Positions 1-46,969 of a stretch of DNA of 46,969 nucleotides are shown here, one piece after another (the stretch's first letter is position 1; each line of letters opens with the position of its first letter). Under the pieces are notes generated by a model that ran no database searches, was not told where the DNA came from, and saw nothing but the letters and a program-made list of their open reading frames with translations. Origin of the DNA: a virus. Lineage: Duplodnaviria > Heunggongvirae > Uroviricota > Caudoviricetes. The position numbers were made by a program, and so were the translations under genes. Location of the stretch: IMG/VR virus record IMGVR_UViG_3300045988_152627. One strand, written 5' to 3'.

Positions 1-119
1 AGTATTTCGAATCCAGGCAAGGATTGAGTCATTTTCAAAAGTAAGCCCACCGGACAAGGTATCGCCATTTTTTTGCACGGCGTTACCAGCCCTGTTTACC
101 GTTTCCTGCAAACCGAGGT
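1..119. repeat. Left arm of a perfect 119-bp inverted repeat (reverse complement of 46851..46969)
   Basis: Direct comparison of the first 119 bases with the reverse complement of the last 119 bases: identical, then diverging at 120. Confidence 0.9.
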
Positions 120-1476
120 ATTCGATAACGGCGGCAACGGTCGATTTCGCAAGAATATCCCGCCCGACTTTTGTCAGAGTTGCCAGGCTGGCGACATCAT
201 TCCCCGTAAAATACGGAAACCTGTCTGCCGCAGTAGCAAGCCCGGCCAGCGCCGTCAGGGTGGCATCTTTCGGTTGCTTACCCGCAAGCGCGTTAGTCAT
301 GGTGGTCGCAAAATTCGGGTCGTTGCCCAACGCCGCAGCCAGCTCGTTCAGCGTATTCAGTGCGTCAGGCGACGAGTCCACGAGGGCAGCGATCGCAGCC
401 ATAACGAAAGCCGTGCTTGCGATCTGAGTATTGTTAGTACCTTTTGGCGCAGTTGGTGTTGTTGGTGTTCCGGTCAGCGCCGGACTGTTCAGGGGCGCTT
501 TCTTGTTCGTTTCATCCATTACCACCTTTACAGCTTTCGATGTCGCGGCCAGTGTTTCAGACGTGCTGTTGGTGGCACTACTGAGCTGAGTTATTCCCCT
601 TACAGTCAGTGAAGCTACAGGCACATTTGTTATCTGCTCCCACGAATGCGTGTGATTGGACGGAGCCTTTCCGGCCGCAAGATCATACGCTGCCTTAACA
701 GCCTTTGGTGTTGCTGCTAGCGTTTCAGACGTGCTGTTGGTGGCACTACTGAGCTGAACAATCCCTTTTCGCGCTGTAGTAGCGTCCTGTGCGGTGTATT
801 TGCCATTAGCCAGGTCATATGCTGCCTTAACAGCCTTAGGCGTCGCAGCAAGCGTTTCAGACGTGCTATTGGTGGCGCTGCTAAGTTGAACAAAGCCTTT
901 TGAGGTTAAAGTTGCATCGGGATGATTACGTGATTGCTCATGTTTCACAATGGCTTGCTTAAGCCGCTTTGCTGAAACAGCAAGGGAATCATCTGTACCT
1001 GCATCAATTTCTTGTTCATTGGCAAATCTTGCTACCCCAACAACAGTTTCGGTTGCGGGAGGATTAATAAACTCAATATCACCAAATGTAATATTTTTAG
1101 TATCAAGAGTCTTGATTGCTATGTCACTTGATATTAAAGCAATAGTAGATGATGCTTTATTTATTATTGCTTGTTCTTGCGAGTATACAGCAAACAACGT
1201 TCCCTTATTTGTATACAATCCTATTGTATGGACAACATACTCATCTTTACTATCATCCTTCGCCGTTACATGAATTGTATCAGGGGAAACAACTTTGCCA
1301 CCTATTGTGGTAAGTCGTTTTATTTCGTCTGTTATATTTGTTTGTGAGGTTGACGTGACATAATATCTACTACCTAAACCAACAGAAACAATCTCAACTT
1401 TATTTGTTCCTGTTTTGTTGGCATTAACCAACTCCTGACGCCCGGCGTCAGTCATCGTAAATAATAATTTACTCAC
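1..1476 (-). CDS. Tail fibre protein, N-terminal constant part; 3' end runs off the window start (partial)
   Basis: Open minus-strand frame from GTG 1476 (RBS AAGGAA) or ATG 1455 to the window edge; three QLSSATNSTSETLAATPKAVK repeats, TPTTPTAPKGTNNTQIASTAFV and KQPKDATLTALAGL motifs typical of P2 H / Stf-type fibres. Confidence 0.85.
   Translation of the reverse strand, partial: MSKLLFTMTDAGRQELVNANKTGTNKVEIVSVGLGSRYYVTSTSQTNITDEIKRLTTIGGKVVSPDTIHVTAKDDSKDEYVVHTIGLYTNKGTLFAVYSQEQAIINKASSTIALISSDIAIKTLDTKNITFGDIEFINPPATETVVGVARFANEQEIDAGTDDSLAVSAKRLKQAIVKHEQSRNHPDATLTSKGFVQLSSATNSTSETLAATPKAVKAAYDLANGKYTAQDATTARKGIVQLSSATNSTSETLAATPKAVKAAYDLAAGKAPSNHTHSWEQITNVPVASLTVRGITQLSSATNSTSETLAATSKAVKVVMDETNKKAPLNSPALTGTPTTPTAPKGTNNTQIASTAFVMAAIAALVDSSPDALNTLNELAAALGNDPNFATTMTNALAGKQPKDATLTALAGLATAADRFPYFTGNDVASLATLTKVGRDILAKSTVAAVIEYLGLQETVNRAGNAVQKNGDTLSGGLTFENDSILAWIRNT
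103..128. other. gix/cix-like invertase crossover site, left copy
   Basis: TTCCTGCAAACC-GA-GGTATTCGATAA: two inverted 12-bp half-sites around a 2-bp core, resembling Gin/Cin/Hin sites; the homology boundary with the right copy falls just past the core. Confidence 0.6.
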
Positions 1477-1506: not shown

Positions 1507-2088
1507 TTAGCACTCGCCAATTAATCGTACATAGGACACAGGCTGACAAGCACCAACAATACCAACACCACCAGAAACATTGGCAGCTTGCGAAAATGTA
1601 AATAATGTTCTTGCCGACTTTGCGCTCTTGATACTTCTTAACGTATCTTCCAACATCTCTTTCGAAGGAACGGCACCATCAAAAGAGTTAATCGAAGCAA
1701 CAATTGAGGCTGTATATGGTTCGCCAGGTGGTGATGTTTCAAACCATTCTGTTATATTTACCTCTCCACCCAAGCTATTTACTACATCTTCAACCGCTGC
1801 CCTTGTACCCTTTATTCGCTTTGTTCGTATTATTGATTTAAAAACAGAACGCTTTAACGATACAGGCCAACTATCCCTCCATGTATCAGCATTCCATTGC
1901 CAAGCTAAATGATCGAGAACAACTGAGTCCAGGTTATCAACAACACTATATATTTCTGTCTTATATATTAAATTGTTAATTGCTTGTAGTTCATCATCGA
2001 TAGCTTTCGACATAGCTATCACGTTGGGATCTCTAGCTAAGTTAGGAGGTAAAACATCCAACAAGCTAACATTAAAGATATCAGCCAT
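1507..2088 (-). CDS. Baseplate/tail protein, P2 gpI-like (Mu gp48-like)
   Basis: 193 aa, immediately upstream of the tail fibre and downstream of the J-like gene, the conserved P2/Mu order. Confidence 0.55.
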   Translation of the reverse strand: MADIFNVSLLDVLPPNLARDPNVIAMSKAIDDELQAINNLIYKTEIYSVVDNLDSVVLDHLAWQWNADTWRDSWPVSLKRSVFKSIIRTKRIKGTRAAVEDVVNSLGGEVNITEWFETSPPGEPYTASIVASINSFDGAVPSKEMLEDTLRSIKSAKSARTLFTFSQAANVSGGVGIVGACQPVSYVRLIGEC

Positions 2089-3205
2089 CCTCTAACCCCG
2101 CATACTGGCAATTTATATTTCTCTCTCTGGCGACCTGCGTCTCTCCAACCACAGTAAATACAGGACTTGATATTTCTAATCTTTTAGCCCCAGCATTTTT
2201 TAAACGTTGAATAATTTCATCTGGATTTATATCTCTTCCCATAACCGAACGTTGCCATTGTTTATACTCATCAATAGCTTTCTCAACCTCACTTTGAATT
2301 AAAGTTGTTCTGTTTTTGTCCGATGAGTTAATCCAGTATTTAATTATTATATCGTATTCAATGCTCTCTGGTTTCTTAACAAGAACTTTATCTGTGAATG
2401 GTCGAATATTAGTTGCAGAGAGAACGCTATTTATCTGCTCTAATAGTTCATCAGAAGGTATATCTCCGTTCTCTAACAAAGAACGGATTTCTACAGTTCC
2501 GGGCGATGGTGTATATACATTCACATCTTTTATATTCTGATTGGCTGTTCTTGTCCAATATTTATAAGAATCCTCCGGCCCTGCTGTAGACAGTTTTTCC
2601 GGCGACAGTTTTATTCTTTCAGCATAATTATCATCTGACTCTGTATCAGCACCAGAATTAGATGTTGTTAGATTCCTTACGCTGGAAACATACGGCAACG
2701 GAGTCACCAACTCGTTTATTTGCCCAGGTAAAAAGCCATTCCCCGATAAGCCAGGTATAACAGCATATCCTGAGACTGTACCAACTGTTTTCCCAGCTGG
2801 TATTTCCAACAAAACATCTGTTTGGAAAATAACACTATTTCCAGTTGAAATTTGAGTGCCAGCAGGTATTGTATATATCCCCGATAATTTTGTTGACAGC
2901 TTAAACTCAAATGTAGTCAAGGCAGATTGAGCTTCCAGCCTAGGCGTATCCGTCAGATAGCCTATATGGTCGAGATATTCACCCCCACCATATGTAAGAA
3001 GGTTTTGTTTTGCAGAAAAATCGATAGCTTTTCTTTGCTGTATAATAATCTCACACAATGACAAGATGAATAATCTACGTGGATCAGCAGGTGCTAATGT
3101 TTCACCTGTTATACTCTCAAAAGCCCTGATTGAACGAGTTGTTATATCAGTCGGGTTAGAATCTGCGAAAGTAATATCTGGCAAACCACCGCGCGGCAAC
3201 GTCAT
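2081..3205 (-). CDS. Baseplate J-like protein
   Basis: 374 aa; size and position between the W-like and I-like genes; start overlaps the upstream gene. Confidence 0.65.
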   Translation of the reverse strand: MTLPRGGLPDITFADSNPTDITTRSIRAFESITGETLAPADPRRLFILSLCEIIIQQRKAIDFSAKQNLLTYGGGEYLDHIGYLTDTPRLEAQSALTTFEFKLSTKLSGIYTIPAGTQISTGNSVIFQTDVLLEIPAGKTVGTVSGYAVIPGLSGNGFLPGQINELVTPLPYVSSVRNLTTSNSGADTESDDNYAERIKLSPEKLSTAGPEDSYKYWTRTANQNIKDVNVYTPSPGTVEIRSLLENGDIPSDELLEQINSVLSATNIRPFTDKVLVKKPESIEYDIIIKYWINSSDKNRTTLIQSEVEKAIDEYKQWQRSVMGRDINPDEIIQRLKNAGAKRLEISSPVFTVVGETQVARERNINCQYAGLEDG

Positions 3206-3522
3206 TCTCTAACTCCTATCACAAGTTTTGGCCTAATAAAACCATCAGAAACGTCCGTTCTTTCAAAAGTAACAGAATGGATAATCGCTCTAGGCTCAAA
3301 CTCACTAATTTTTTGAATTATTTCTCGTGTTGCTGTAGCAATAAAAATTGGGCTGGGGCTATCAACAAGACTTGAATTAACTCCTAATTTTCTGGCATAT
3401 GGTACAGTGCCAATCTGAGTATTAATAATAGTAGAGACATTTTGCAAAACTTCTTCTACAACTGTTTTGGGCGACCAATCAATCGAGTAAGAAGGTGATG
3501 ATATGGTAAACGTATTATTCAT
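3202..3522 (-). CDS. Baseplate protein gpW/gp25-like
   Basis: 106 aa, translationally coupled to the J-like gene; conserved position. Confidence 0.55.
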   Translation of the reverse strand: MNNTFTISSPSYSIDWSPKTVVEEVLQNVSTIINTQIGTVPYARKLGVNSSLVDSPSPIFIATATREIIQKISEFEPRAIIHSVTFERTDVSDGFIRPKLVIGVRE

Positions 3523-3986
3523 AATAATTTACCTAACGCACTTCTAGTTTTTGACTCTATATTGCCAGCAATATCAACTAATGCTTCTTTCAGAGAGGTC
3601 TGCCCGACTTCCTGTAATTTAATGCCGACGATAATCACTCGTGGATTTCCAGTTGGACCGAAATAAGTCCATGACTCCTCTATATCTGTAATTATAAAAT
3701 TACCAAAATACTGAATACCAATTACAACAGGATTTACTTCCTGAATTGATTGCATTGTCCTAAGTAATGAAAGCGCAGCCAATGGAACAATGCCAAGTGT
3801 TGTATCCAACCGCATATTAAAACTAACTTCATCCAGATCTGGACCTATATCCTCCAGAACAGGTTTAAGCCCAATAACATCATGGCGCGCTACACGACGC
3901 TTTGACGTCCTTTTAAAATTGTTGAACGTATTCACCACTATTGATGAGGCAACAAAAGGCATTGTACCAAGCATACCCACAATCAT
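3519..3986 (-). CDS. Tail protein, possibly gpU-like
   Basis: 155 aa between the spike and W-like genes; weak resemblance to the P2 U family. Confidence 0.4.
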   Translation of the reverse strand: MIVGMLGTMPFVASSIVVNTFNNFKRTSKRRVARHDVIGLKPVLEDIGPDLDEVSFNMRLDTTLGIVPLAALSLLRTMQSIQEVNPVVIGIQYFGNFIITDIEESWTYFGPTGNPRVIIVGIKLQEVGQTSLKEALVDIAGNIESKTRSALGKLL

Positions 3987-4603
3987 GCCTGAGCCTCCGT
4001 TGTCGGAGCGTATTCCCCCTGAGCTGTGTGATGGTGGCCTTTAGATTTAATCCCATCAACATCTATATCACCACCAACAACCTTAACATCCCCAGAAATT
4101 GTAGCTGCAACACCTCCAGCAGAAGATCCTTTCATTCCACCTTTGAAGGTTAGTAATCCTTCAACTGTAGCATTTCCGGTAATGATGGTTTCTGGAGCAT
4201 CAATAGTTACGGTTCCTGTAGCCTTAACGGTTACATCTCCGACAGCATCAACAAGGAGTAAATTAGATTCTCTGTCTACCTCAATACGAGTTCCGTTATT
4301 AAATCTAATGACGCGTTTATTAACCGTATTAGATGGCGGCTTCTGTGTTTCATCATAAAAACTACCAAGAATAAAACCTTGTTGCGGCCCTGCGGGATGA
4401 AAGATACACAAAACTTGCTCACCAATATCTGGCATCCAGTAATCAGCATTCTTATCCGTATTTTTCACAATAACTGATAACTTTGCCGAAGTGACGTTAT
4501 CCTGATCATCGAAAGTAACTCTTGCTGTAACATCACCATCATCAATATCAGAAACAACGCCAACTCTTATAGTCTGACGTAATAATGTTTCTAAATCATT
4601 CAT
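3983..4603 (-). CDS. Baseplate spike protein, gpV-like
   Basis: 206 aa; OB-fold-like N-terminus and Gly-rich C-terminus ending in GHHHTAQGEY; conserved position. Confidence 0.6.
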   Translation of the reverse strand: MNDLETLLRQTIRVGVVSDIDDGDVTARVTFDDQDNVTSAKLSVIVKNTDKNADYWMPDIGEQVLCIFHPAGPQQGFILGSFYDETQKPPSNTVNKRVIRFNNGTRIEVDRESNLLLVDAVGDVTVKATGTVTIDAPETIITGNATVEGLLTFKGGMKGSSAGGVAATISGDVKVVGGDIDVDGIKSKGHHHTAQGEYAPTTEAQA

Positions 4604-4605
4604 AA

Positions 4606-5607
4606 TTAATACCCATTAATTACTCTTCGGACATCAATCGAGGTGGTATAACCACTAGCCCCAATTGAATGCACAGCTTTCGATATAAGATATTTTCCAG
4701 AAAATGAACCGAATCCGTCCAGATTTATAGTTACACCAGCTACCAATCTGGTGTCTCCAACCAATACTAAAGCCCCTGTATTTTGATATCTATTTTTAAG
4801 CCGCAAAGCAGCCTTTGCCTTACGTTTTGCTTCATCTAAATTAGCTACCAGTTTTCTTATCTTAAGATTCGACCCTTCTTCTACGGATGGATCTACCCAA
4901 GTATACGAAAGCGACTTTCTTTTTTTAGGTACGCGATATTTGCACGTGCAACTTTTATACAAATCTGTAGATTGTGTGCTAAAGCTATATCTGATTATCT
5001 CATCAATACCTAACGTAAGCGTAGCGATAGGATCTTTTTGCTCAAACATCTCTTGAGCAAATATTATTAATTGGCTATCAGTGACCTTTAACGACAACCC
5101 TTCATCCTGGCAAAGTCGATGGAGAAATTTTAAATCGCTTTCCTCCATTTGATCTTCACGCGCATAATATGGATTACTATCACCATCAATAAGAAACAAC
5201 AGTTCAAGGTTAGCTAATTTAGCTATAGAAGTTGCTATATCTTTAAGAGTTGTTTTTTCCCATGCATTACTTTTTAAATCACGTCTAATGCCTGATGAAA
5301 CAGGAACAGAAACAGCAGTTACCTCAACAACAGAAGGTGGTCCAGAGCAAGTTATGCCATCTACCTGGAATTTCCCGCACTCAAGGACGATTTGATTTAT
5401 AGGCTTAAAGCTCAAATCAATAAAATCACCCTTTTTAGGTGTCCAGTCTCCAGACCATTTCCCATCATCATTTTTTAATATAATAGAAATATCATCGACC
5501 TGACCATCTTCATTATCTGTATAAGACATTGACAAAACATCAGGTGACATATGAGCGGTAATATTTACATTCTGATATATAACATCAAAAAGCGTTTTAC
5601 GTAACAC
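4606..5607 (-). CDS. Tail protein gpD-like (late control D family)
   Basis: 333 aa, immediately downstream of the X-like and tape measure genes. Confidence 0.55.
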   Translation of the reverse strand: MLRKTLFDVIYQNVNITAHMSPDVLSMSYTDNEDGQVDDISIILKNDDGKWSGDWTPKKGDFIDLSFKPINQIVLECGKFQVDGITCSGPPSVVEVTAVSVPVSSGIRRDLKSNAWEKTTLKDIATSIAKLANLELLFLIDGDSNPYYAREDQMEESDLKFLHRLCQDEGLSLKVTDSQLIIFAQEMFEQKDPIATLTLGIDEIIRYSFSTQSTDLYKSCTCKYRVPKKRKSLSYTWVDPSVEEGSNLKIRKLVANLDEAKRKAKAALRLKNRYQNTGALVLVGDTRLVAGVTINLDGFGSFSGKYLISKAVHSIGASGYTTSIDVRRVINGY

Positions 5608-19896: not shown

Positions 19897-20452
19897 TTTT
19901 TAACCGCCATAACACAACAGGTTAAAGAAAACTGTTTAACTTATTGATACTAAAAGAGAAAAATGACGATCTTTTTACTCATAAAAATCACAAAAACCAG
20001 GATAATTATCTGATTTTATTAAGTTTTTATAAGTGAAAAGGATCTTGCGATGGTGTTTTGGTTAAAAGATTGGATGTATTTGCATGATTTATAACGATTT
20101 TTATCAGAACAACATCACATTGGTTAAAGATCTGCGCGTATCTTGATGATCTAAAAGAAAATTTTCTACTTTCTTTTTACCAGCACAAATACAGCAAAAA
20201 ATCACGTTTTCCCGATATTTTTCAATAAGATGAGTAAATTTCTTTTACCGCAACTTTTAACCTAACTTTTTTCACGTTTAGCTAGCCGAACATCGGGGTT
20301 CGAATGACCCGCATCCAACGCTTTTGGCCAGAAGGACCCAATTCTGCCGGACGATGAAACGATGCTCGTGCTCCCCCACAGACAGCCAGCGAGCGACGCT
20401 ACAGAACACAGTGAATACACTCTGCATAACAACACCATCAACCACACGATGA

Positions 20453-21172
20453 TTAACGAGAGAAAGTCTTAGAAAGAATGTCATCAATAGCCTTTGTGAC
20501 TTCATCAGCAAACGCATCCTCACCAGCACGCAGCGCCACGCCATGCCAATCAAGACGCTGCGAATAGTTAGGTTGCTGGATAAACGTAAGGATCAACGTA
20601 GGACGCCGCCCAACGCGCTGCCAGACGCCTGGTTGAAGCGGGTTACTTGTACCAGGTCGAACAACAAAAAACTCCGTAGGCTTGCCCTGACGGCGATTTT
20701 GATGCGCATCTCGCTGAACTCTTAGGCCAGATAAGACCTGCTGTAATTGCCCCCGCGAAATATTCCCATATTTGTCCAGCTTTGCGCCGGGACCAGGAGC
20801 AAGCTGCCAGCCGTTAGGCAAATATCCACCAGCCCTTAGCGCCCCTTCTGAGCGTTTGTACTGTCGTTGTCCACCTTCGATTTGCGGAGTCAACGTTACA
20901 GGGGCTGGCGTTCCTCCCCATTCACGAGCATACACAATGGCTGTAGGATCACTCTTCTTTGCGGCCAAAACGTAAGTAGAGTTCTGAATCCACGGCGTGG
21001 GCCTGTCAAATACCCGATTAATTTCATTCTTAATCGCAGCCTGAGAAGCCTTTGCCGTTCTGGTTGCCGCAAGCGCCATTGCGAACGGCAATTCGCGTTC
21101 TTCAAGGCGCTGGAGTTGTCGTTGAATATCCTGAGAAGAAAAATCCATCTTTATCTCAATTCTGTCAGCCAC
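20453..21172 (-). CDS. Hypothetical protein
   Basis: 239 aa ORF coupled to the ParB-MTase gene; no recognisable motif. Confidence 0.4.
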   Translation of the reverse strand: MADRIEIKMDFSSQDIQRQLQRLEERELPFAMALAATRTAKASQAAIKNEINRVFDRPTPWIQNSTYVLAAKKSDPTAIVYAREWGGTPAPVTLTPQIEGGQRQYKRSEGALRAGGYLPNGWQLAPGPGAKLDKYGNISRGQLQQVLSGLRVQRDAHQNRRQGKPTEFFVVRPGTSNPLQPGVWQRVGRRPTLILTFIQQPNYSQRLDWHGVALRAGEDAFADEVTKAIDDILSKTFSR

Positions 21173-21188
21173 CAGCGCCTCCTACACA

Positions 21189-22568
21189 CTACTTAATCAA
21201 CGGCCGGAAAGCCGCCAGCACATCATCAGATCGTCCGATTGTTGAACCACCAGGCAACGGCAACTCAAACTCAAAACGAACAGCTTTCTCCAGACTCGCC
21301 CAACTAAGGGAATCATCGTTAATGACGTGCAAATACCAGCTCTTACAGTTGAATATTGACCGCTTAATCCTGAAACCATGTACACGACACAACTGCTTCA
21401 CTTCATCATCAGAGTGAAACTTCTGGTAAAACCAGTGCCCCTTCCGGTACAACGCGGTAAAACCGTTATGATCAATAAAATAAAGCCGGCTTTTGGAACT
21501 CGCCGCTTGTGTTTGCTTCAGGACTGTTTCCAGCTCTCCACGGCTACGACCAGAAAAGAATATTGACCCACCAGCTTTACACAGGCCTTTCAGAACCGTC
21601 AGAACGGACCATTCAGCCTCGACACTATCGACCGAGTTCAAAACGCTATCGCAAATCACGTAGTCGTAACGCCCTCGCGTTTTTAAGTCGTCCACCAGCG
21701 TATCAATCATCCAGTTTGTTGCGGCCCTATCCAGAGTGTTTCCAGCGCCCTTACGGCGGAAAAGCTCGAGATCATGCAGGTTATATCCCTTTGCCCTGAG
21801 CATTCGCGCGTAGTCTCCCTGCCCCGAACCAAAATCAATTCCTCTTGGCGTCTTGGCAATGATCGGGAGGATCAACGACTCATACAGGTTTGATTTCAGG
21901 CTGCCACCATTACGCAACCGCATAAGCTGCGCATACGTCTGGATGTATGTTGTTTTCTCCAGATGAGAATACTCAAATACACCATAAGTTTTATTCAGAT
22001 AACTTTGGTATTTTTCCTTCTCAACATCAGGGATCACAAACACCGTTAGCGGTGTGCGCGTCATCTTCGCTGCTAATGCATACTGAGCACAGTGAATAAC
22101 CTCGCCAGACTGAGTAGCAACACACCCCCCCCACGGACCATACTTGATAACCAGTTCCGCTATGTTCTTTCGAACATATGCCATTTTCGCGCGCATATTG
22201 CCTGAGATCTGGCTTGCCGATACCTGAACAAAACCATGCTTATCTTCCAGACCGGACACCCTGCAACGCTCATCTCCGCTATCAAAATCCGTTCCGTTAT
22301 GCAGTTGGTTAAACCGTACTTCGTCGTATACCGTCGTTTCACAGGGCAACACATACACCGCAGCACGCGTTATTCCCAACTTACGTAGCGCCTTCGTCCT
22401 TTGGTGTCCCGCCACCAGCAAATCGCCGCGCACTATCAATGGCTTCACAAGCCCTAGCTCCCTGACGCTTTCCGCCAGCCTCGCAAGATCATCCTCACCG
22501 ATAAAACGCGGGTTATATTCCGCACCGCGTAGGTGCGTTATGTCGTAATTGAGGTGAAGCATCAGCAC
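21189..22568 (-). CDS. ParB/Srx-like domain fused to a class I SAM-dependent methyltransferase
   Basis: 459 aa; N-terminal LIVRGDLLVAGHQRTKALRKLG (ParB-like); C-terminal IDFGSGQGDYARML (motif I) and DYVICDSVLNSV; no DPPY/NPPY motif seen. Confidence 0.7.
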   Translation of the reverse strand: MLMLHLNYDITHLRGAEYNPRFIGEDDLARLAESVRELGLVKPLIVRGDLLVAGHQRTKALRKLGITRAAVYVLPCETTVYDEVRFNQLHNGTDFDSGDERCRVSGLEDKHGFVQVSASQISGNMRAKMAYVRKNIAELVIKYGPWGGCVATQSGEVIHCAQYALAAKMTRTPLTVFVIPDVEKEKYQSYLNKTYGVFEYSHLEKTTYIQTYAQLMRLRNGGSLKSNLYESLILPIIAKTPRGIDFGSGQGDYARMLRAKGYNLHDLELFRRKGAGNTLDRAATNWMIDTLVDDLKTRGRYDYVICDSVLNSVDSVEAEWSVLTVLKGLCKAGGSIFFSGRSRGELETVLKQTQAASSKSRLYFIDHNGFTALYRKGHWFYQKFHSDDEVKQLCRVHGFRIKRSIFNCKSWYLHVINDDSLSWASLEKAVRFEFELPLPGGSTIGRSDDVLAAFRPLIK

Positions 22569-23185
22569 ACCTCCCCAGCCAGCAATGCGGATACAAATCC
22601 GATATAGCTGCCATTATCATCAACATAACGAGACACCGCGCAGTCAAAACGATCCGCTTCCTCATCCGTTGCCGGGATTTTATGACCTCCAAATGACAGG
22701 TACTGAACTTTTACGCCTGATTTGGCCTCATCCTTCTCAAATGGGATATCCATACCCTCTGTGTCATCGTAGACCGCCGCACTCAATAAGTTATCCAGTT
22801 CGCGCTGAGTAAAACCAATTGAGTCCAGAGCAAAATCATCGGCCGCAAGATCTGCAAGCTCCGCGCTTAACAACTCTTCATCCCAACCAGCATTCAGCGG
22901 AATACGGTTGTCGGCCAGACGATATGCCTTCTTCTGATTCTCCGTTAGCCCTTCCAGAACAATGCAGGGAACATCATCCATCCCCAACTGAGTGGCCGCA
23001 GCAATTCGACCATGACCAGCAATTACAACGTTGTTCTCGTCTATCAGGATCGGATTAGTCCATCCGTACTCCTGTATGCTGGCAACAATCTGATCTACCT
23101 GCTCCACGGAGTGTGTGCGAGCGTTCTTTTCATAACCAATCAACACAGAAAGTGGTAAAGAAACCACATTAAGATGTTTTGTCAT
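22562..23185 (-). CDS. ParB/Srx-like nuclease-domain protein (paralogue of 19306..19896)
   Basis: 207 aa; LIDENNVVIAGHGRIAAATQLG and overall collinear similarity to the 196-aa ParB-like protein. Confidence 0.75.
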   Translation of the reverse strand: MTKHLNVVSLPLSVLIGYEKNARTHSVEQVDQIVASIQEYGWTNPILIDENNVVIAGHGRIAAATQLGMDDVPCIVLEGLTENQKKAYRLADNRIPLNAGWDEELLSAELADLAADDFALDSIGFTQRELDNLLSAAVYDDTEGMDIPFEKDEAKSGVKVQYLSFGGHKIPATDEEADRFDCAVSRYVDDNGSYIGFVSALLAGEVC

Positions 23186-23420
23186 GCCGTTTATCCGCTA
23201 AAATCCCCTCGCTTGTGCAAGCAAGTGGGCCTCGGTTTGTATCCACGGCACCCTGTGGGTATGAATGACTGTCGTCAGGTCGCAACTGACGGCGGTCGCC
23301 CACCTTCCAGTAATAAAAAAGCCACCAGCATTAACTCCACAGCGAGCTGGAGTTAATGAGGCAGCTTTGGTTTGCGCATTATCGCAGTCCCTGGTAAGCA
23401 CAAGAGCTGCTGTAATGCTA

Positions 23421-25081: not shown

Positions 25082-25200
25082 CGGGTTATCTCCGGTTTAA
25101 CCAGGGCGGGTATCGCTCGGTTTCGGGTATAACATTAGGAAATTTTTTCCCACCTGTAAAGTACTTTTTATATAATTATATAATTATATAATTCTATGAC
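25082..25200 (-). promoter_or_regulatory. Promoter-leader cassette copy 1 (TTTACA-N17-TAATGT, about 50-nt leader, RBS GGAGAT)
   Basis: Minus-strand -35 at 25155..25160 and -10 at 25132..25137; near-identical to 32154..32275 and 42784..42900; (TATATAAT)x3 upstream of the -35. Confidence 0.6.
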
Positions 25201-26083: not shown

Positions 26084-26159
26084 TTGGTGGCCCCTACCGG
26101 ATTTGAACCGATGACCGTGCGATTATGAGTCGCCTGCTCTAACCACTGAGCTAAGGGGC
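26084..26159 (-). tRNA. tRNA with CAU anticodon, most similar to tRNA-Ile2 (ileX-type); elongator Met not excluded
   Basis: 76-nt cloverleaf GGCCCCTTAGCTCAGTGGTTAGAGCAGGCGACTCATAATCGCACGGTCATCGGTTCAAATCCGGTAGGGGCCACCA: 7-bp acceptor stem, D and T arms, CTCATAA anticodon loop, encoded CCA. Confidence 0.85.
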
Positions 26160-26329
26160 CATATTTGATCTGTTTGTCTGGTGTGGCGCCGCGCACGAAA
26201 ATCCCAGCCAATAAATTCAGGATTTTTGGGCGCGGCGGCATATCAGACAAACATGGTTGATGCGTGCGCCCATGAGAAAAGCGCATAGAATGTTGTAACT
26301 ATATATTTATATAATTATAGAAATATATA

Positions 26330-32153: not shown

Positions 32154-32275
32154 CAGATTTCTCCGGTTTAACCAGGGCGGGTATCGCTCGGTTTCGGTTA
32201 TAACCTTAGGAAATTTTTTCCCACCTGTAAAGCACTTTTTATATAAATCTATAATTATATATTTATAGATTTTCG
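32154..32275 (-). promoter_or_regulatory. Promoter-leader cassette copy 2, directly downstream of the Q-like gene
   Basis: Same sequence as copies 1 and 3 with a few substitutions (TAAGGT at the -10 position); TATAAATCTATAATTATATA motif upstream. Confidence 0.55.
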
Positions 32276-40865: not shown

Positions 40866-41500
40866 AGAAATCTCCTTTTAGATATAAGGGTAAAGCAATA
40901 TCGTATTAGATCTTCCTTAAGACACAACCCCCCCTCCCCCCATACAGGGTGCCCTTTACCGGAGTTCCGGCCCCTTCTCAAAAGCATCAAAAAAAGCTCG
41001 AGATCGAGTACCGGAACTCATGCCACCAGATAGCTCCACATCGTTTCCAATGCTTCGCCGCCGTGTGCGCCCTGTGGCCCACAATCATGCCATTGGTCGT
41101 CTGATATACCTTCTTCTGCTCATTGAGCACAGGCGAGTTGTCGCACTCCTGCCTTTCTCAGACTCGACTTAGTTTAGATCGCTGTTCCTGGCTTGCGTCA
41201 GCACACTTTCCCCTTGTACGCATACCCGCGCGCCACTTCGCCCAAAAACACCGAACCCAACGAAGTAGCAAAGACAACGACGCGAGCGTGAGTCTGAAAC
41301 GTGCACCAGTAAAAAAGGGGTTGCAGGCGCAAAAAGATTTGATTATCTTTAGACGCAAGAAAGCCGCCCCAATCAAGAGGTGTCTTTTTAAATCCAGCCT
41401 ACCAAGCAAGATTTAAATTTCAGACTGAAAACCGCCCGGCAAGGCGGTTTTTGTCTTTCTGGCGCTTACATTACACCACCAGAAAACGATCCGTAAAGGA

Positions 41501-41773
41501 TCATTTGATCCCTTGTTCCAATTCTGCCGACACTTTAACCTTTTCCCATACAAGGGTTTGCAGCCTTAACAGAATCGCATCTTTATCAAGGTGTGAAAGA
41601 TCCTTAACCATATCGTCAAACGACAGAACGCGAATGGCCATCTCAATGACCCTCGGCGGCTCCCCCTTCTCATATCGCTTATATGTAGCCAACGATATCC
41701 CAAACTCTTCGGCTGCTCGCTCCTGCGTCCAGTTCATCCCACGACGCCATAATTTCAATTCGTAACCCGTCAT
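41501..41773 (-). CDS. XRE-family HTH regulator
   Basis: 90 aa; HTH WTQERAAEEFGISLATYKRYEKG; divergent from 41875..42300. Confidence 0.6.
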   Translation of the reverse strand: MTGYELKLWRRGMNWTQERAAEEFGISLATYKRYEKGEPPRVIEMAIRVLSFDDMVKDLSHLDKDAILLRLQTLVWEKVKVSAELEQGIK

Positions 41774-41874
41774 TACATCCTCTACCTTTCCCTAGATATT
41801 CAATAAATTAGACATAGCCACTCACGACAAAATAAGATGTATTAACAATCCAATCTTTAGGCTTTAGGTAAAAA

Positions 41875-42300
41875 ATGAGTTCATCTGCTTTTGTCACCGT
41901 GGTCACTGGTGTAAGTGTTTTTGTTCTAGGCCAACTCATCGTCAAAGGAGCTATTGAGCCTTACATTTCATTCAGGGAACAACTAGGGAAAATATCCAAT
42001 CTGTTATTATGTAACCAAGCAAAAATAGTGAATCCTGGCTCGAACTTAAAGCCAGAAATCATTCATGATCTAAAAGATTCCGCAGCACAGTTAATGGCAA
42101 AATATTCCACTTTACCTTTCTATATCAAAAAGTTACATATCGGCTTTCGTCTTGTTCCATCAGCCACCGAGATTCTTGGGGCAGCTCGAAATTTGAACTA
42201 TATAGCGTCAATACATGAAGGTAAGACTGGGGAGAATCCATCTAAGCATCTCGAAGAGATTGGCCATATGCTCAAAATACCAACTACCTATTCAAGCTAA
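41875..42300 (+). CDS. Hypothetical protein with N-terminal TM helix
   Basis: 141 aa; N-terminal hydrophobic helix SAFVTVVTGVSVFVLGQLIV; low-GC gene. Confidence 0.4.
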   Translation: MSSSAFVTVVTGVSVFVLGQLIVKGAIEPYISFREQLGKISNLLLCNQAKIVNPGSNLKPEIIHDLKDSAAQLMAKYSTLPFYIKKLHIGFRLVPSATEILGAARNLNYIASIHEGKTGENPSKHLEEIGHMLKIPTTYSS

Positions 42301-42366
42301 CCCAATGTAAGTTATCGGCTTGCCCCACAATAAGTTATCTATCTTCAAACGCCCCTATATTAACAC

Positions 42367-42393
42367 TCGCAAAGTGTCAAAATGACACTTTGC
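42367..42393. terminator. Bidirectional terminator, 11-bp perfect stem
   Basis: GCAAAGTGTCA-AAA-TGACACTTTGC between convergent genes 41875..42300 and 42403..42783. Confidence 0.55.
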
Positions 42394-42402
42394 GCATTGT
42401 GT

Positions 42403-42783
42403 TTACTTAACGAGGAATAAAAATGGTTTATCGTTCGGCGGTGTACTCGGGGCTGGCTCGCTTTTGCTCATACGATCAGTGTACCAGGCCAGCTCCTTGT
42501 CAAAGTAAGCCTGATTAAAATAGGCCATGAATGTGGTTTCAAATCCATAACGACCGCTAATACGCAGCATCTGATTGCCGTTCTCTGTTTCCAGATATAC
42601 CTGGGCACGTTCCTGATTCTCCTTCAGCCAAGTTAAAGCCTCGTCGCACGAGGACACACGATACTCATCATCGTAGCCGTCATCGATGCGGCTTGAAGGA
42701 GAACGGCAAATCACGCCAACAGAACCAGCCAGGATAGTTTGAATTTTAAGGAAAGCGTTTTTGCGGATTTTAATCATGCTCAT
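42403..42783 (-). CDS. Hypothetical protein
   Basis: 126 aa; start codon sits exactly at the end of promoter-leader cassette copy 3. Confidence 0.4.
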   Translation of the reverse strand: MSMIKIRKNAFLKIQTILAGSVGVICRSPSSRIDDGYDDEYRVSSCDEALTWLKENQERAQVYLETENGNQMLRISGRYGFETTFMAYFNQAYFDKELAWYTDRMSKSEPAPSTPPNDKPFLFLVK

Positions 42784-42900
42784 CGGGTTATCTCCGGTTT
42801 AACCAGGGCGGGTATCGCTCGGTTTCGGGTATAACATTAGGAAATTTTTTCCCACCTGTAAAGCACTTTTATATAAATCTATAATTATATAATTCTATGA
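42784..42900 (-). promoter_or_regulatory. Promoter-leader cassette copy 3 (TTTACA-N17-TAATGT)
   Basis: Minus-strand -35 at 42857..42862 and -10 at 42834..42839; about 88 bp identical to copy 1 from the ATG up to the -35. Confidence 0.6.
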
Positions 42901-42945
42901 GCACAAAAAAGCCCCTTTGCAACAGGGGCTTATCATTCGTTCTGA

Positions 42946-43245
42946 TCAGATGTTAAACGCTATTCGTTTTCCTGTGGGAAGCTCAACATCCAGGCTTAAT
43001 TTGCCTCCCATAGCTTCAACGTAACGCTTTAATGTCGCCAGCTTTAAATCATTTCCGCGCTGCTCCAGCTTTGTTACTGCTGGCTGACTAATACCCATCG
43101 CCTCAGCAACCTGTTTTTGTGATAACTGGAGTTCTTCACGCATCATCTGCAAGCCGACCTCAAGAATCATCTCATCTGCCATTTCTTTAATTCGCGCCTG
43201 GCTTTCAGGTGAACGGCTGGCAATCACCTCATCTAATGTTCTCAT
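42946..43245 (-). CDS. higA: HigA-type HTH antitoxin
   Basis: 99 aa; HTH LSQKQVAEAMGISQPAVTKLEQ; downstream of and overlapping the toxin gene. Confidence 0.75.
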   Translation of the reverse strand: MRTLDEVIASRSPESQARIKEMADEMILEVGLQMMREELQLSQKQVAEAMGISQPAVTKLEQRGNDLKLATLKRYVEAMGGKLSLDVELPTGKRIAFNI

Positions 43246-43598
43246 TACTTGCTCTCCAGTGTGTTCAGATGTGCTGCAAACTCATCCTCAGCTATACGCA
43301 CCAGTTTTTCATAAAACCGTTTATCGTTACTTTTGTCTCCTGCACAAAGAACGATGGCCCGGCGAATCGGATCGAACGCATAAAAGGCTCTTATCGGACG
43401 GCCAGAAAACTGAACGCGAAGCTCTTTCATATTTTTGTACCGAGAACCTTTTACGGTATCGGCATATGGCCTGGGTAACTCAGGTCCGTAAACCTGTAGC
43501 TTTTTCAAATCAGCCAAAACCTTTTCCTGAAGAGCGTCTTCTTGCTCATTTAGCCAGTCGTCAAATCGCTGGCTAAAAAGTACCGTCCACATGCTCAA
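43245..43598 (-). CDS. higB: RelE/ParE-superfamily toxin (HigB / Gp49-like)
   Basis: 117 aa; toxin-first order with a 1-bp overlap to the antitoxin; sequence pattern typical of HigB-like toxins. Confidence 0.75.
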   Translation of the reverse strand: MSMWTVLFSQRFDDWLNEQEDALQEKVLADLKKLQVYGPELPRPYADTVKGSRYKNMKELRVQFSGRPIRAFYAFDPIRRAIVLCAGDKSNDKRFYEKLVRIAEDEFAAHLNTLESK

Positions 43599-43836
43599 TC
43601 CTATAACCTGTAGTTTATATTACTAACTATATAACCTGTGGGTTATAATTTCAAGAAAAACGGGGCTATTTAACATAATGGACGTTATCGGCACCACCGG
43701 ATCACCGTTCATTGTCGGATCTAAAAAATCCGCTCAAAAGATCATGTTTTCCTGGGCGTTTTCCACCGTTTTTTATGTTGCTTATTTGTTAATGAAATCT
43801 CGTTTTCAGTTTCGCCTCATTTTCGACGCGAAAGCC

Positions 43837-44127
43837 CTATTTTTGTGACTTTACTCCTGGCATATGGACTTCCCAGCGACGAATCCCCATAGCTGCGCAA
43901 AAATCAGCCACATAATTCAATCCCGCCCATTCGCGGATACCACCACGGGCTTTTTCAATGAAAACGGCAATCCCTTTTTTATTGAGAGCAAAAAGCCGCC
44001 AGCTTTTTGTCACTTCGTCCTGGGTAGCCACAACACAAGTGAAAGCGCCCATGCGATACAGGTCCAAGAACTCTTTGCGTGTTTTACGTACAAGTTCCAT
44101 AACAAACCTCATATTTGCATGTTTCAA
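43837..44127 (-). CDS. Hypothetical protein
   Basis: 96 aa ORF overlapping the upstream gene by 4 bp. Confidence 0.35.
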   Translation of the reverse strand: MKHANMRFVMELVRKTRKEFLDLYRMGAFTCVVATQDEVTKSWRLFALNKKGIAVFIEKARGGIREWAGLNYVADFCAAMGIRRWEVHMPGVKSQK

Positions 44128-44423
44128 ACATCTGTTTTGTCATCAATGAAGATTAACCCTAACCCAGCGAAGTAACACAGCAGCGCCCAGGCTGCATACG
44201 GAATGCTGGATCTGGATGTGGACTCCTTTAACATCTGCCAATTGCGAACATTGCGACTATCTTTTAGGCCAAGTTTTTTGGCCAACTGCGAGCCGCTCAT
44301 TCCGGTCAGGCCAATGACTGCCCGAACTTCTCCACATGTAGGAGATTCCCATTCATCCGCTTTTTTTAAACAAGCCGGATTCAACATTTTTAAAACAGTA
44401 TCTTTATCCATAACCATCTCCAT
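44124..44423 (-). CDS. Hypothetical HTH-like protein with C-terminal hydrophobic helix
   Basis: 99 aa; HTH-like MSGSQLAKKLGLKDSRNVRNW and C-terminal AAWALLCYFAGLGLIFI. Confidence 0.35.
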   Translation of the reverse strand: MEMVMDKDTVLKMLNPACLKKADEWESPTCGEVRAVIGLTGMSGSQLAKKLGLKDSRNVRNWQMLKESTSRSSIPYAAWALLCYFAGLGLIFIDDKTDV

Positions 44424-44469
44424 TTATTATATCTACGATGGTAGGAAATCTTTTCCTATGTGGCAATAG

Positions 44470-45054
44470 AAATTTACTACATTGCGTATAAGACAAGTTT
44501 TCTATGTCTAATAGGAAATGATGTTTCTTATGTTTTATCGCGTTCTGATGGCTACTGTGTGCGTATTTATCGACGTTTATTGATAAGGCTCACCCCTTCC
44601 TCCTGCAAAGCCCGGCCGTAGGCCTTATTTCGGCCTTATATAAATTGATTTTGTATAGTTCGAAACGCGCCGTTTCGAAAAGGATGATCAGGCTGCACCA
44701 TGCCTCCGGCAAGTGCCGGAGGAGGTATATTTGAGCGTAGCGACTCGAACCGGCGCGAGCTTTAGCTCGCTGCAAGGGCGAACATATTCACAGGCAAAGC
44801 CTGTGTAAGTTAAATAAAGAAAGTCTTAATAAAAGAAAGTGATTTTGCATTTATTTGTTTAGTGCATCTATTATAAAAAACCATTTGCATATACATATCA
44901 AAACTGTGGATAACTTGATTAGCTGATGCCTGTAAAGGCGATATTTACGCTGTGTTCAAGTTTAGAAAAAATCAATTCAGCCTGTTTTTTGAACAGATAT
45001 TTTATTGCGACGTAGATAATCCTCCGGTAAAACCGGATTCATCATTCAGGTGGG
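44470..45054. promoter_or_regulatory. Candidate plasmid replication origin (oriR-like) downstream of repA
   Basis: Non-coding region with an AT-rich stretch (44800..44900) next to a consensus DnaA box; position relative to repA as in IncFII replicons. Confidence 0.5.
44905..44913 (-). promoter_or_regulatory. DnaA box (TTATCCACA on the minus strand)
   Basis: Plus-strand TGTGGATAA, exact match to the DnaA box consensus. Confidence 0.6.
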
Positions 45055-45903
45055 TTAATGCTGGAGTGATTTCCAGGTCTTTCTTAGCCTGTTATAACGC
45101 TGCTCAACGAGGGATCGTAAATATGCAAGGTCAGCTCCAGGATACATGCCATCAGCAAATTCCTGGCTAACCTCTCTAGTGATTTGATGACGAAGTTCGG
45201 CCTCTCCCTTTTCCCGAACAAGACGCGCAGCTCTCTCCGCTGCTTTCTGTTTTGCCTTTATCTCTCTAGCCGTCTTCCTCTGACGCCATACATTCTCCAT
45301 CTGCTCCTGAATAACAATACGCTTATAATCAGCCTCCGTTATCGCTTTTTTAAGCCGTTCGCTATTCTTCGCATTGAAGTAATTAAGTTTCTGGCTAACC
45401 GCACGTCTCCATGCTTGTTCAGTAATACCAACGGTTTCCAGAAGTTGATCACGAATCTCTATTTTCGCTGGCCAATACTGTTTATTCACCCGATCCCAGC
45501 GACGTTCATAATCAATAAAACCTAACGCTTTCAGTTGCGACAACGCCCTTGTACAGCGCGTTATAGACTTGTTCCCAGCTTCGGATACGGTAGACAGGCC
45601 GCAAAAATCAGCCAACGCCTCAGCACTGGCCAGAACCCGCTTAGAAATGATGTTTACATGGTGCAAAATCGCAGCAATCACAGCATTAATCGCCCGACGA
45701 CGATGCTCGTTTATCCGGCGTTTCCGCTCTGACGGTTGATTAACGTAGAACGCAACCTCACACGTAAGATCACGACCATTAATGCGCTGTAAAGCATCAG
45801 ATAACACCAGCGGCAGCTTGTGCGTATGGTGCTTTGGAGGCTGGAACTCCGGCGACAAATTACAAACGTAAGCTGAACGTAGAGACTGCATTGGTCTATC
45901 CAT
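45055..45903 (-). CDS. repA: Plasmid replication initiator RepA, IncFII RepA1 family
   Basis: Segment RRAINAVIAAILHH...GNKSITRCTRALSQLKALGFIDYE parallels RepA1 RRAIDALLQGL...GKLSITRATRALTFLSELGLITYQ; start taken at the internal ATG 45903 (about 282 aa); the longer ORF to 46041 overlaps the antisense RNA. Confidence 0.8.
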   Translation of the reverse strand: MDRPMQSLRSAYVCNLSPEFQPPKHHTHKLPLVLSDALQRINGRDLTCEVAFYVNQPSERKRRINEHRRRAINAVIAAILHHVNIISKRVLASAEALADFCGLSTVSEAGNKSITRCTRALSQLKALGFIDYERRWDRVNKQYWPAKIEIRDQLLETVGITEQAWRRAVSQKLNYFNAKNSERLKKAITEADYKRIVIQEQMENVWRQRKTAREIKAKQKAAERAARLVREKGEAELRHQITREVSQEFADGMYPGADLAYLRSLVEQRYNRLRKTWKSLQH

Positions 45904-45947
45904 ATGTTCGCTCTTGCGTCCACGGAAAACCAACGTATAATGGGAGT

Positions 45948-46036
45948 TGTCGAGGCGCCCATGGATTGTTGTTGGTTTTTGTTTCTTTCCGTGGATGTCG
46001 CAAGAAGCCCGCAGATTTATCTGCGGGCTTTTTGTT
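45948..46036 (+). ncRNA. CopA-like antisense RNA candidate (countertranscript to the repA leader)
   Basis: Plus-strand promoter TTGCGT-N16-TATAAT (45914..45941), stem-loop AAAACCAAC/GTTGGTTTT, and terminator hairpin AGCCCGCAGA-TTTA-TCTGCGGGCT plus T-run (46006..46036). Confidence 0.5.
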
Positions 46037-46077
46037 TCCATATCTGGTCACTTTCCAACCAGACACCCACAATCATA

Positions 46078-46222: not shown

Positions 46223-46777
46223 TCAATGATTCCCAGCCGGAAACCTGCGGTAAAGCGTGGATAAGGTAACATCGAAGATAATCGCTATCCGCTTACGTGA
46301 AACACCATTCGCAATAAGCCTTCCGATCTGTTCCCATTGCTCTGGTGCCAGTTTTGAGCGACGTCCTCCTATCCTGCCGTTAGCCCTTGCCACCGCCAAT
46401 CCTGCACGCGTTCTTTCAATCATATTTTCCCGCTCCATCTCTGCGACTGCACTCAGCATCGTGTAGGCAAAGCGGCCAATTGAAGTGCTGATTTTTATCC
46501 CTTCCGTAATTGAAATAAACTCAATGTCGTTTGATAAAAAATGGTTAAGTAAATCAACAAGATGAATCAGAGAACGCCCCATTCGGTCCAGCTTCCAGAC
46601 AATAACCGTATCGCCCGGTCGTAACACCTTCAGTAGCTTATCAAGTCCTGGTCGTTTTGATTTAGCACCGGATATTTTATCTTCAAAAATCCGGTCACAT
46701 CCTGAACTCCTGAGCGCCTCCAGTTGTAATTCCAAATTCTGGTCAAAAGTTGACACCCTCGCATAACCATATTGCAT
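46223..46777 (-). CDS. Serine-recombinase DNA invertase, Gin/Cin/Pin/Hin family
   Basis: 184 aa starting MQYGYARVSTFDQNLELQ (catalytic Ser motif); C-terminal HTH GGRRSKLAPEQWEQIGRLIANGVSRKRIAIIFDVTLSTLYRR closely parallels Gin. Confidence 0.9.
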   Translation of the reverse strand: MQYGYARVSTFDQNLELQLEALRSSGCDRIFEDKISGAKSKRPGLDKLLKVLRPGDTVIVWKLDRMGRSLIHLVDLLNHFLSNDIEFISITEGIKISTSIGRFAYTMLSAVAEMERENMIERTRAGLAVARANGRIGGRRSKLAPEQWEQIGRLIANGVSRKRIAIIFDVTLSTLYRRFPAGNH

Positions 46778-46841: not shown

Positions 46842-46867
46842 TTCGCAAAAACCTCGGTTTGCAGGAA
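46842..46867. other. gix/cix-like invertase crossover site, right copy
   Basis: TTCGCAAAAACC-TC-GGTTTGCAGGAA; inverted relative to 103..128, sharing one half-site and core; 65 bp upstream of the invertase start. Confidence 0.6.
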
Positions 46868-46969
46868 ACGGTAAACAGGGCTGGTAACGCCGTGCAAAAA
46901 AATGGCGATACCTTGTCCGGTGGGCTTACTTTTGAAAATGACTCAATCCTTGCCTGGATTCGAAATACT
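46851..46969 (+). CDS. Start-codon-less alternative tail-fibre C-terminal segment (partial, runs off window end); also the right arm of the inverted repeat
   Basis: Plus-strand frame encodes LGLQETVNRAGNAVQKNGDTLSGGLTFENDSILAWIRNT, identical to the minus-strand tail-fibre frame at 1..119; no start codon or RBS. Confidence 0.65.

Follow-up and report, generated by a model that had tools for sequence, protein, structure and literature searches.

The systems closest to the locus described here are the G segment of phage Mu with its invertase Gin and the C segment of phage P1 with Cin; Hin of Salmonella, Pin of e14 and Min of p15B are further relatives. Small serine recombinases of the invertase subfamily are about 185-195 residues long and combine an N-terminal catalytic domain with a C-terminal HTH. 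The asymmetric GA core of their crossover sites means that matched ends result only from inversion. The inverted repeat of Mu has a textbook length of 34 bp, and P1 has inverted repeats of about 0.6 kb inside its segment, with the crossover sites at the outer ends. Hin flips a promoter and not a coding end, and Min of p15B uses six sites. Phage P2 has one fixed fibre end and is not known to carry an invertase or gix sites. A Fis-bound enhancer and subunit rotation are the established mechanism for Hin and Gin (PMC3798978, PMC3575834). Fis-bound enhancers, established for Hin, promote formation of the synaptic tetramer (PMC3798978), and the Fis-dependent enhancer of Mu is placed within the 5' part of the invertase gene (Kahmann et al. 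1985, cited in PMC3798978). Programmed inversions of tail-fibre genes have been systematically catalogued (PMC9881135).

Here we analyse a Caudoviricetes sequence of 46,969 nucleotides (IMG/VR record IMGVR_UViG_3300045988_152627), the whole of which we call the window. We conclude, with a probability of roughly 0.92, that the window is a nearly complete circle of about 49 kb belonging to a temperate myovirus of enteric bacteria kept as a plasmid (IncFII-type RepA, ParA, P2-like tail), and that its assembly was broken at a tail-fibre inversion switch of the Mu G/P1 C type. The features on which this reading draws are the following.

1..119, minus strand: near inverted-repeat arm, made up of the 39 codons that open a variable tail-fibre part, inside the invertible segment and truncated at the contig end; exact reverse complement of 46851..46969, its frame continuous with the constant part
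103..128, plus strand: 26-bp gix-like crossover site on the fibre side, matching Mu gix at 23/26 positions, with the GA core (115-116) between an inner (103-114) and an outer (117-128) half-site
120..1476, minus strand: tail-fibre gene, constant N-terminal part of about 453 codons; it includes three Phage_fiber_2 repeats (Pfam PF03406, E 3e-59), and its start agrees with the one annotated in relatives
1507-2088, minus strand: P2 gpI-like gene upstream of the fibre gene (Pfam Tail_P2_I, E 4e-27)
2081-3205, minus strand: baseplate J-like gene upstream of the fibre gene, from the annotation of relatives
45055..46041, minus strand: IncFII-type RepA replication initiator adjoining the invertase, outside the switch (Pfam PF02387, E 1e-43; annotated repA in relatives)
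46223..46777, minus strand: DNA invertase gene, a 184-aa serine recombinase of the Gin/Cin/Hin/Pin subfamily (Pfam Resolvase E 4e-44, HTH_7 E 3e-13), starting 64 bp from the far site
46842..46867, minus strand: invertase-side 26-bp gix-like crossover site (core 46854-46855), 22/26 identical to Mu gix
46851..46969, plus strand: far inverted-repeat arm, where the alternative, silent variable part of the fibre begins, with the same 39 aa in frame and truncated at the contig end

A sequence-only reading of this DNA had claimed a perfect 119-bp inverted repeat common to both ends, and we confirm that 46851..46969 is the exact reverse complement of 1..119. A repeat of this length and perfection cannot have arisen by chance. 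With one mismatch allowed, the end-to-end inverted match grows to 122 nt. The identity stops 3 bp beyond the GA core, inside a 26-bp site at each end. The gix-like site that had been proposed at 103..128, with its core at 115..116, is also borne out by direct comparison with Mu. Both Mu gix sites, taken from the annotated G-segment boundaries in NC_000929, read TTCCTGTAAACCGAGGTTTTGGATAA; the near site of the window is TTCCTGCAAACC-GA-GGTATTCGATAA and the far site, on the minus strand, is TTCCTGCAAACC-GA-GGTTTTTGCGAA, and the GA core is common to all of them. A degenerate pattern that covers both sites, searched with up to three mismatches, picks out these two places alone in the window, and 100 shuffles gave no match. 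The window thus holds two inverted 26-bp sites, each made of 12-bp half-sites around a 2-bp core, as in switches of the Gin/Cin/Pin/Hin type, and an invertase-subfamily enzyme with catalytic serine and HTH adjoins the segment, also as in that type. With two sites in the window, the locus does not show the more than two crossover sites of multi-site systems such as Min of p15B or a shufflon. The relatives that we scanned likewise have two sites per locus in all but one case, CP098182.1, in which the invertase-side site alone was detected.

The fibre-side site splits the tail-fibre gene into a constant and a variable part. On the minus strand, 492 codons from 1476 to 1 run on without a stop, and the GA core falls in codon 454. 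The site is thus in frame at the split between the two parts, and joins to both cassettes of a metagenome segment described below (QZLY01006765.1) stay in frame, in keeping with the earlier expectation that the repeat lies in the tail-fibre frame and that the constant N-terminal part can be joined to either C-terminus. Window positions 1-591 show 90.7% identity to a stretch of the tail-fibre gene annotated in P2, and the near arm shows 95.9% identity to gene S of Mu where that gene meets the G-segment boundary. At the other end of the window, residues 2-181 of the invertase align with the Gin structures 3UJ3 and 4M6F (E 1e-61), with Ser9 aligned in an RVST motif. The protein shares 55% amino acid identity with Mu Gin, and the exact window protein is very widespread, occurring in 820 collection blocks. 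The presence of RepA beside the invertase marks the element as a phage-plasmid.

The sequence that would lie between the two ends can be read from relatives. A megablast search returned Yersinia phages vB_YpM_41, 44 and 39 at 98-99% identity to the window, together with many circular E. coli plasmids of about 48 kb, among them the 48,488-bp plasmid of ATCC 25922. Phages plated on Yersinia pestis and plasmids of E. coli, E. fergusonii, E. albertii and Klebsiella aerogenes have near-identical genomes. The Yersinia phages and E. coli plasmids are whole circular genomes of 48-49 kb, collinear with the window, and the E. coli plasmids carry an IncFII-type RepA. The alignment of the window to the circular 49,128-bp record OR545054.1 runs across the record origin and takes in the whole record except positions 20311-23273, and the window is therefore a complete plasmid-prophage genome minus a segment of about 3 kb. 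The missing piece falls exactly between the two window ends, which is where, on a circle, the sequence-only reading had placed it (between 46969 and 1). We examined the layout of this segment in ten contigs with an identical invertase protein, in three phage records and in eight records of E. coli plasmids, of which six are the 48,488-bp ATCC 25922-type plasmid. In order, the segment holds the rest of the fibre gene, Tfa, an opposed Tfa and an opposed silent fibre C-terminus that ends at the invertase-side site, beyond which lie the invertase and RepA. Nine of the ten identical-invertase contigs have this layout intact; in the tenth, CP098182.1, a Tn3-family transposon sits in the silent cassette and the fibre-side site is disrupted, from which it follows that decay occurs in the family. 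Apart from this disrupted cassette, the circularising sequence of the relatives therefore contains the two opposed C-termini and two chaperone genes that had been predicted for the segment. By the same token, the segment of the window genome itself probably has the architecture seen in its relatives.

The window genome itself was found in no second record by the searches that we made. An exact 40-mer search of viral_contigs returned five other contigs, none of them the window, and an exact look-up of its 930-aa tape-measure protein gave no match on record. A literature search for a description of the RepA phage-plasmid family of about 48-49 kb, or of its switch, found no paper. Two candidates for described members were rejected, vB_YpM_HQ103 being a different, 32-kb phage and the ETEC phage-plasmids being of P1 or SSU5 type. 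We also note that pTZ20_1P occurs in a paper on P1 phage-like elements, and that CP009073 is cited in the literature as a reference genome only.

Direct evidence that the segment inverts comes from the ATCC 25922 plasmid. Over a 12.9-kb stretch around the switch, the sole difference between two assemblies of this plasmid, CP158444.1 and CP009073.1 (both 48,488 bp), is a 3,048-bp block that is exactly reverse-complemented. Both orientations thus exist in nature for one plasmid type, as the two-orientation model had anticipated; there are six public assemblies of the ATCC 25922-type plasmid of 48,488 bp, and the other four share the block orientation of CP009073.1. The inversion breakpoints lie inside the 26-bp sites, and on the fibre side the breakpoint maps within the counterpart of the window site 103..128. 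The inner half-site has a C/T polymorphism at its seventh base that is carried along when the segment flips, and the sequence from AAACC-GA-GG outward stays put. The perfect repeat in this plasmid is only about 10 bp, and the inversion is therefore site-specific and not homologous.

The invertases of the window and of this plasmid are identical at 182 of 184 residues, and the invertase-side sites are the same except for the C/T base that travels with the segment. In a 103-nt stretch compared between them, 99 of 103 positions are identical, including the whole of the site-to-gene spacer and the outer half-site, and all four differences fall between the core and the segment. Taken together, the inversion in the ATCC 25922 plasmid, the near-identical invertase and the identical spacer and outer half-site show that the switch is active in this phage-plasmid family. 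By extension, the copy in the window is probably active as well.

A segment of the kind missing from the window is available from a metagenome. An exact search of metagenome_contigs with 112 nt of the arm found two contigs, neither of them the window; the same 112-mer gave no exact match in genome_contigs. One of the two, QZLY01006765.1 (3,059 nt), has the arm at both ends in inverted orientation, each copy identical to that of the window at 119/119 positions, and its inverted repeat is perfect over 255 bp. It encodes two Caudo_TAP chaperones and a pair of opposed C-termini which, counted from the site, have 289 and 344 aa and agree in their first 85 residues. In-frame joins of these C-termini to the constant part of the window make fibres 744 and 799 aa long. 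Identity to Mu S is 71% for the 344-aa part; for the chaperones, identity to Mu U and U' is 91% and 85%. Within the segment there are no internal crossover sites at up to three mismatches, and each of its cassette types is found singly in relatives. QZLY01006765.1 ends at ...CCGAGGT, the point where two possible outward continuations part, and so does JANALK010000030.1. The assignment of QZLY01006765.1 to the window genome, as a sibling contig, was rejected: its 44-nt flank matches the window at 100%, but most relatives share this flank, and an N15-like element has it too, so that the conservation extends across the family and beyond. Another record that seemed to end in the arm, NZ_CP148365.1, was rejected as well, since it is a protelomerase plasmid of the N15-like kind, unrelated to the window, and the arm merely coincides with its record origin.

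Repeat length is the point on which the window departs from its assembled relatives. Counted inward from the boundary, the repeat stays perfect for 10-73 bp in 14 relatives with full assemblies, which is consistent with their assembling through the switch, against at least 119 bp here; this difference explains why the assembly of the window genome broke at the switch. No complete family record holds the 119-nt arm twice, complete plasmids having it once per record, and the long repeat therefore rests on the window ends and on one metagenome contig. The value 119 is a k-mer size of common assemblers (it is in the k list of MEGAHIT and is k-1 of 120), and the length probably reflects this setting, that is, software and not biology. 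It had also been claimed that the alternative C-termini share their first 39 aa. The same 39 residues do occur in both frames, but as a measure of sharing the figure is a lower bound, because the contig probably ends k bases into a longer repeat on both sides; in QZLY01006765.1 the shared part is 85 aa.

The same observations on repeat length could be taken to mean that the switch is real but that its 119-bp perfect repeat is an assembly product laid over a short true repeat, both ends having been extended k bases into the same cassette from a mixture of orientations or strains. The short repeats of the complete relatives, the single-copy arm in complete family plasmids and the probably software-set length would all fit this account. 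A unitig, however, stops at the first branch, so that a short repeat with mixed orientations would give about 10-70 shared nt and not 119, and extension into the same cassette needs the junctions A-V1 and B-V1 to be kept while A-V2 and B-V2 are dropped, which coverage-ratio pruning does not do. Moreover, a perfect repeat of 255 bp that includes both arms occurs naturally, in QZLY01006765.1, and this is precisely the situation that would make a contig end k bases into the repeat on each side. We consider this account very unlikely. A perfect inverted repeat located exactly at both sequence ends is also the usual signature of linear replicons and transposons, and it might be read as the genuine terminal repeat of a protein-primed or telomere-bearing phage or as transposon ends. 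Genes are complete within such elements, but the fibre frame here runs off the window end without a stop; the inner boundary of the repeat is a gix site beside an invertase gene; the relatives, at 98-99% identity, are circular with about 3 kb more at exactly this point, and their annotation includes neither a protelomerase nor a protein-primed polymerase. Together these findings effectively refute the terminal-repeat account.

There is also the question of which machinery flips the segment. The switch might be a fossil, or might flip mainly by RecA-dependent homologous recombination between long repeats and not by the invertase: a repeat of at least 119 bp (255 bp in QZLY01006765.1) is, by general knowledge, long enough for homologous recombination, and the transposon in the silent cassette of CP098182.1 shows decay in the family. 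Against this, the window has an undamaged invertase ORF in which the catalytic serine is present, its protein recurs unchanged in the 820 blocks noted above, both gix sites are intact and match those of the ATCC 25922 plasmid, which inverted with its breakpoints in the sites, and the roughly 10 bp of perfect repeat in that plasmid are too short for RecA. We judge the fossil or RecA-driven alternative improbable, if anything slightly more so than an assembly-made repeat. A combined scheme, which we hold to be doubtful but less so than either of these, is that the lineage acquired a cassette pair sharing 255 bp (compared with 10-73 bp in relatives) and flips by both the invertase and host homologous recombination, toggling the element between host genera and giving a single plasmid cross-genus reach.

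Returning to the favoured reading of a plasmid-prophage circle broken at an invertase-driven switch, the mechanism would run as follows. A segment of about 3 kb would be flanked by the gix-like 26-bp sites in inverted orientation, of which one follows codon ~453 of the tail-fibre gene and the other is 64 bp upstream of the gene for the Gin-type serine invertase. Two invertase dimers would bind the inverted sites and pair them, a Fis-bound enhancer promoting the synaptic tetramer, and the enzyme would cut both sites at the central GA and rejoin them after a 180-degree rotation, leaving the segment flipped. The flip would fuse either C-terminal receptor-binding part, with its own chaperone gene, in frame to the constant N-terminal part, placing the fused copy behind the late promoter and keeping the other silent. 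Since either C-terminus could be fused in this way, the phage population would carry two host specificities, and the two fibres are likely to differ in host range or receptor specificity. The two alternative parts in the window genome would begin with at least 119 identical bases, and the contig would stop 119 bases into the repeat at both ends, with the segment missing, because a short-read graph assembler cannot resolve so long a repeat. The window's switch may depend on Fis. A Fis scan gave one strict consensus match at +71 in both the window invertase gene and Mu gin, with a consensus too weak to decide the matter; a scan with the same weak consensus gave no convincing second site 48 bp from the +71 match, and a promoter scan between the far site and the invertase start gave nothing above chance.

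These results offer a worked example of how an inversion switch appears in short-read assemblies, as a contig with a perfect inverted repeat at its two ends, the repeat breaking off at a recombination site. A search for this signature could help to locate such switches, and to mark viral contigs that are called complete and yet have no receptor-binding module. For host prediction, it means that the fibre end of the window genome is unreadable from the contig. The results also show that an active host-range switch of the Gin type is present in a common Enterobacterales plasmid-prophage family of about 48 kb, to which the plasmid of reference strain ATCC 25922 belongs, with cassettes shuffled with Mu, P2, P1-like, N15-like and lambdoid phages. 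The mechanism of the switch is textbook, switches of this kind have long been known and the records of the relatives are public. The known mechanism stays as it was.

Among known systems, the locus resembles the G segment/Gin system of Mu (S/U, S'/U', gixL/gixR) in having a constant part, an in-frame 26-bp site, an invertase just outside the second site and, as seen in the relatives, opposed C-termini with chaperones. Unlike Mu, the carrier here is a 49-kb RepA plasmid-prophage with P2-like baseplate genes and not a transposing phage, the invertase is just 55% identical to Gin, and the repeat is at least 119 bp, that of Mu being perfect over 25 bp in direct comparison. With the C segment/Cin system of P1 (also of P7 and SJ46) it shares its setting, a plasmid prophage with a tail-fibre inversion switch, and the invertase region has 89% DNA identity to that of the P1-like phage SJ46. 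The geometry also agrees with that of P1, in that the identity runs inward from the site and the repeat lies inside the segment; unlike P1, the genome is half the size, most genes are unrelated and the repeat is shorter. The tail-fibre gene is like gene H of phage P2 over the 591 positions compared above, with I/J-like genes upstream as in that phage. Hin/hix of Salmonella, Pin of e14 and Min of p15B have an invertase of the same subfamily and the same 26-bp site design, and the locus differs from Min in having two sites in the window and none internal to QZLY01006765.1.

Public assemblies of the E. coli ATCC 25922-type 48,488-bp plasmid (CP009073.1, CP158444.1 and others) differ in the orientation of the tail-fibre segment, a 3,048-bp block that is exactly inverted in one of the six. 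Two contigs also end at the crossover site. The right end of a 3,059-nt metagenome contig that carries a segment of this kind (QZLY01006765.1) and the start of JANALK010000030.1 both stop exactly at ...CCGAGGT, the base at which the two outward continuations diverge. The latter contig is 51,666 nt long (51.7 kb), which is about the genome plus one additional segment and suggests that the assembler included the segment twice.

The same type of inversion switch is found in NZ_CP148365.1, a plasmid-prophage of the N15-like protelomerase type that has a lambda-like tail and is unrelated to the window:

40971-45924 and 74-628 of NZ_CP148365.1, inversion switch

The inverted-repeat arm of this switch is 94.9% identical to that of the window and the 44-nt flank on the invertase side is identical, which together with the N15-like background shows that the switch module transfers between very different phage backbones. 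In the metagenome contig SKES01003805.1, the stretch of repA, invertase, site and arm matches that of the window at 98%, and a weak match of 72% to the invertase gene lies past the segment (5117-5213), hinting at a second invertase-like gene on its far side. The 52-kb relative CP098182.1, which encodes the identical invertase, has an insertion within the silent fibre cassette:

1983-5580 of CP098182.1, Tn3-family transposase and resolvase gene

The invertase-side gix site is the only one detected in this relative, and its switch is probably disabled.

The invertase itself is widespread:

46223-46777 of the window, minus strand, 184-aa invertase

Of the blocks that make up the assembly collection, 820 contain the exact protein, and the element carrying it is therefore very common. 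The longest contigs of these blocks have a bimodal length distribution: in 320 blocks they measure 2-5 kb, and in 311 they measure 20-50 kb.

Elsewhere, the element encodes ParA, ParB-like and MT-A70 methyltransferase genes, along with the following features of the window:

26085-26160, minus strand, tRNA gene with a CAT anticodon
42946-43598, minus strand, RelE/HigB-type toxin (Gp49 family) and HTH antitoxin pair, from synteny with annotated relatives
25089-25196, first copy of a ~108-nt repeat
32160-32267 and 42791-42898, two further copies of this repeat

Because the homologous tRNA gene of relatives is annotated as tRNA-Met in one record and as tRNA-Ile in another, the window's tRNA may be a lysidine-type tRNA-Ile. 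All three repeats contain an AT-rich TATATAATTATATAA-like motif, of which 12 copies fall between 25161 and 42905. Relative to the first repeat, identity is 94% for the second and 80% for the third, and at least two of the three stop no more than about 10 nt upstream of the start of a minus-strand ORF. The repeats resemble a set of promoter/operator modules that would serve a phage-plasmid regulator, and they recall the dispersed repressor operators of P1.
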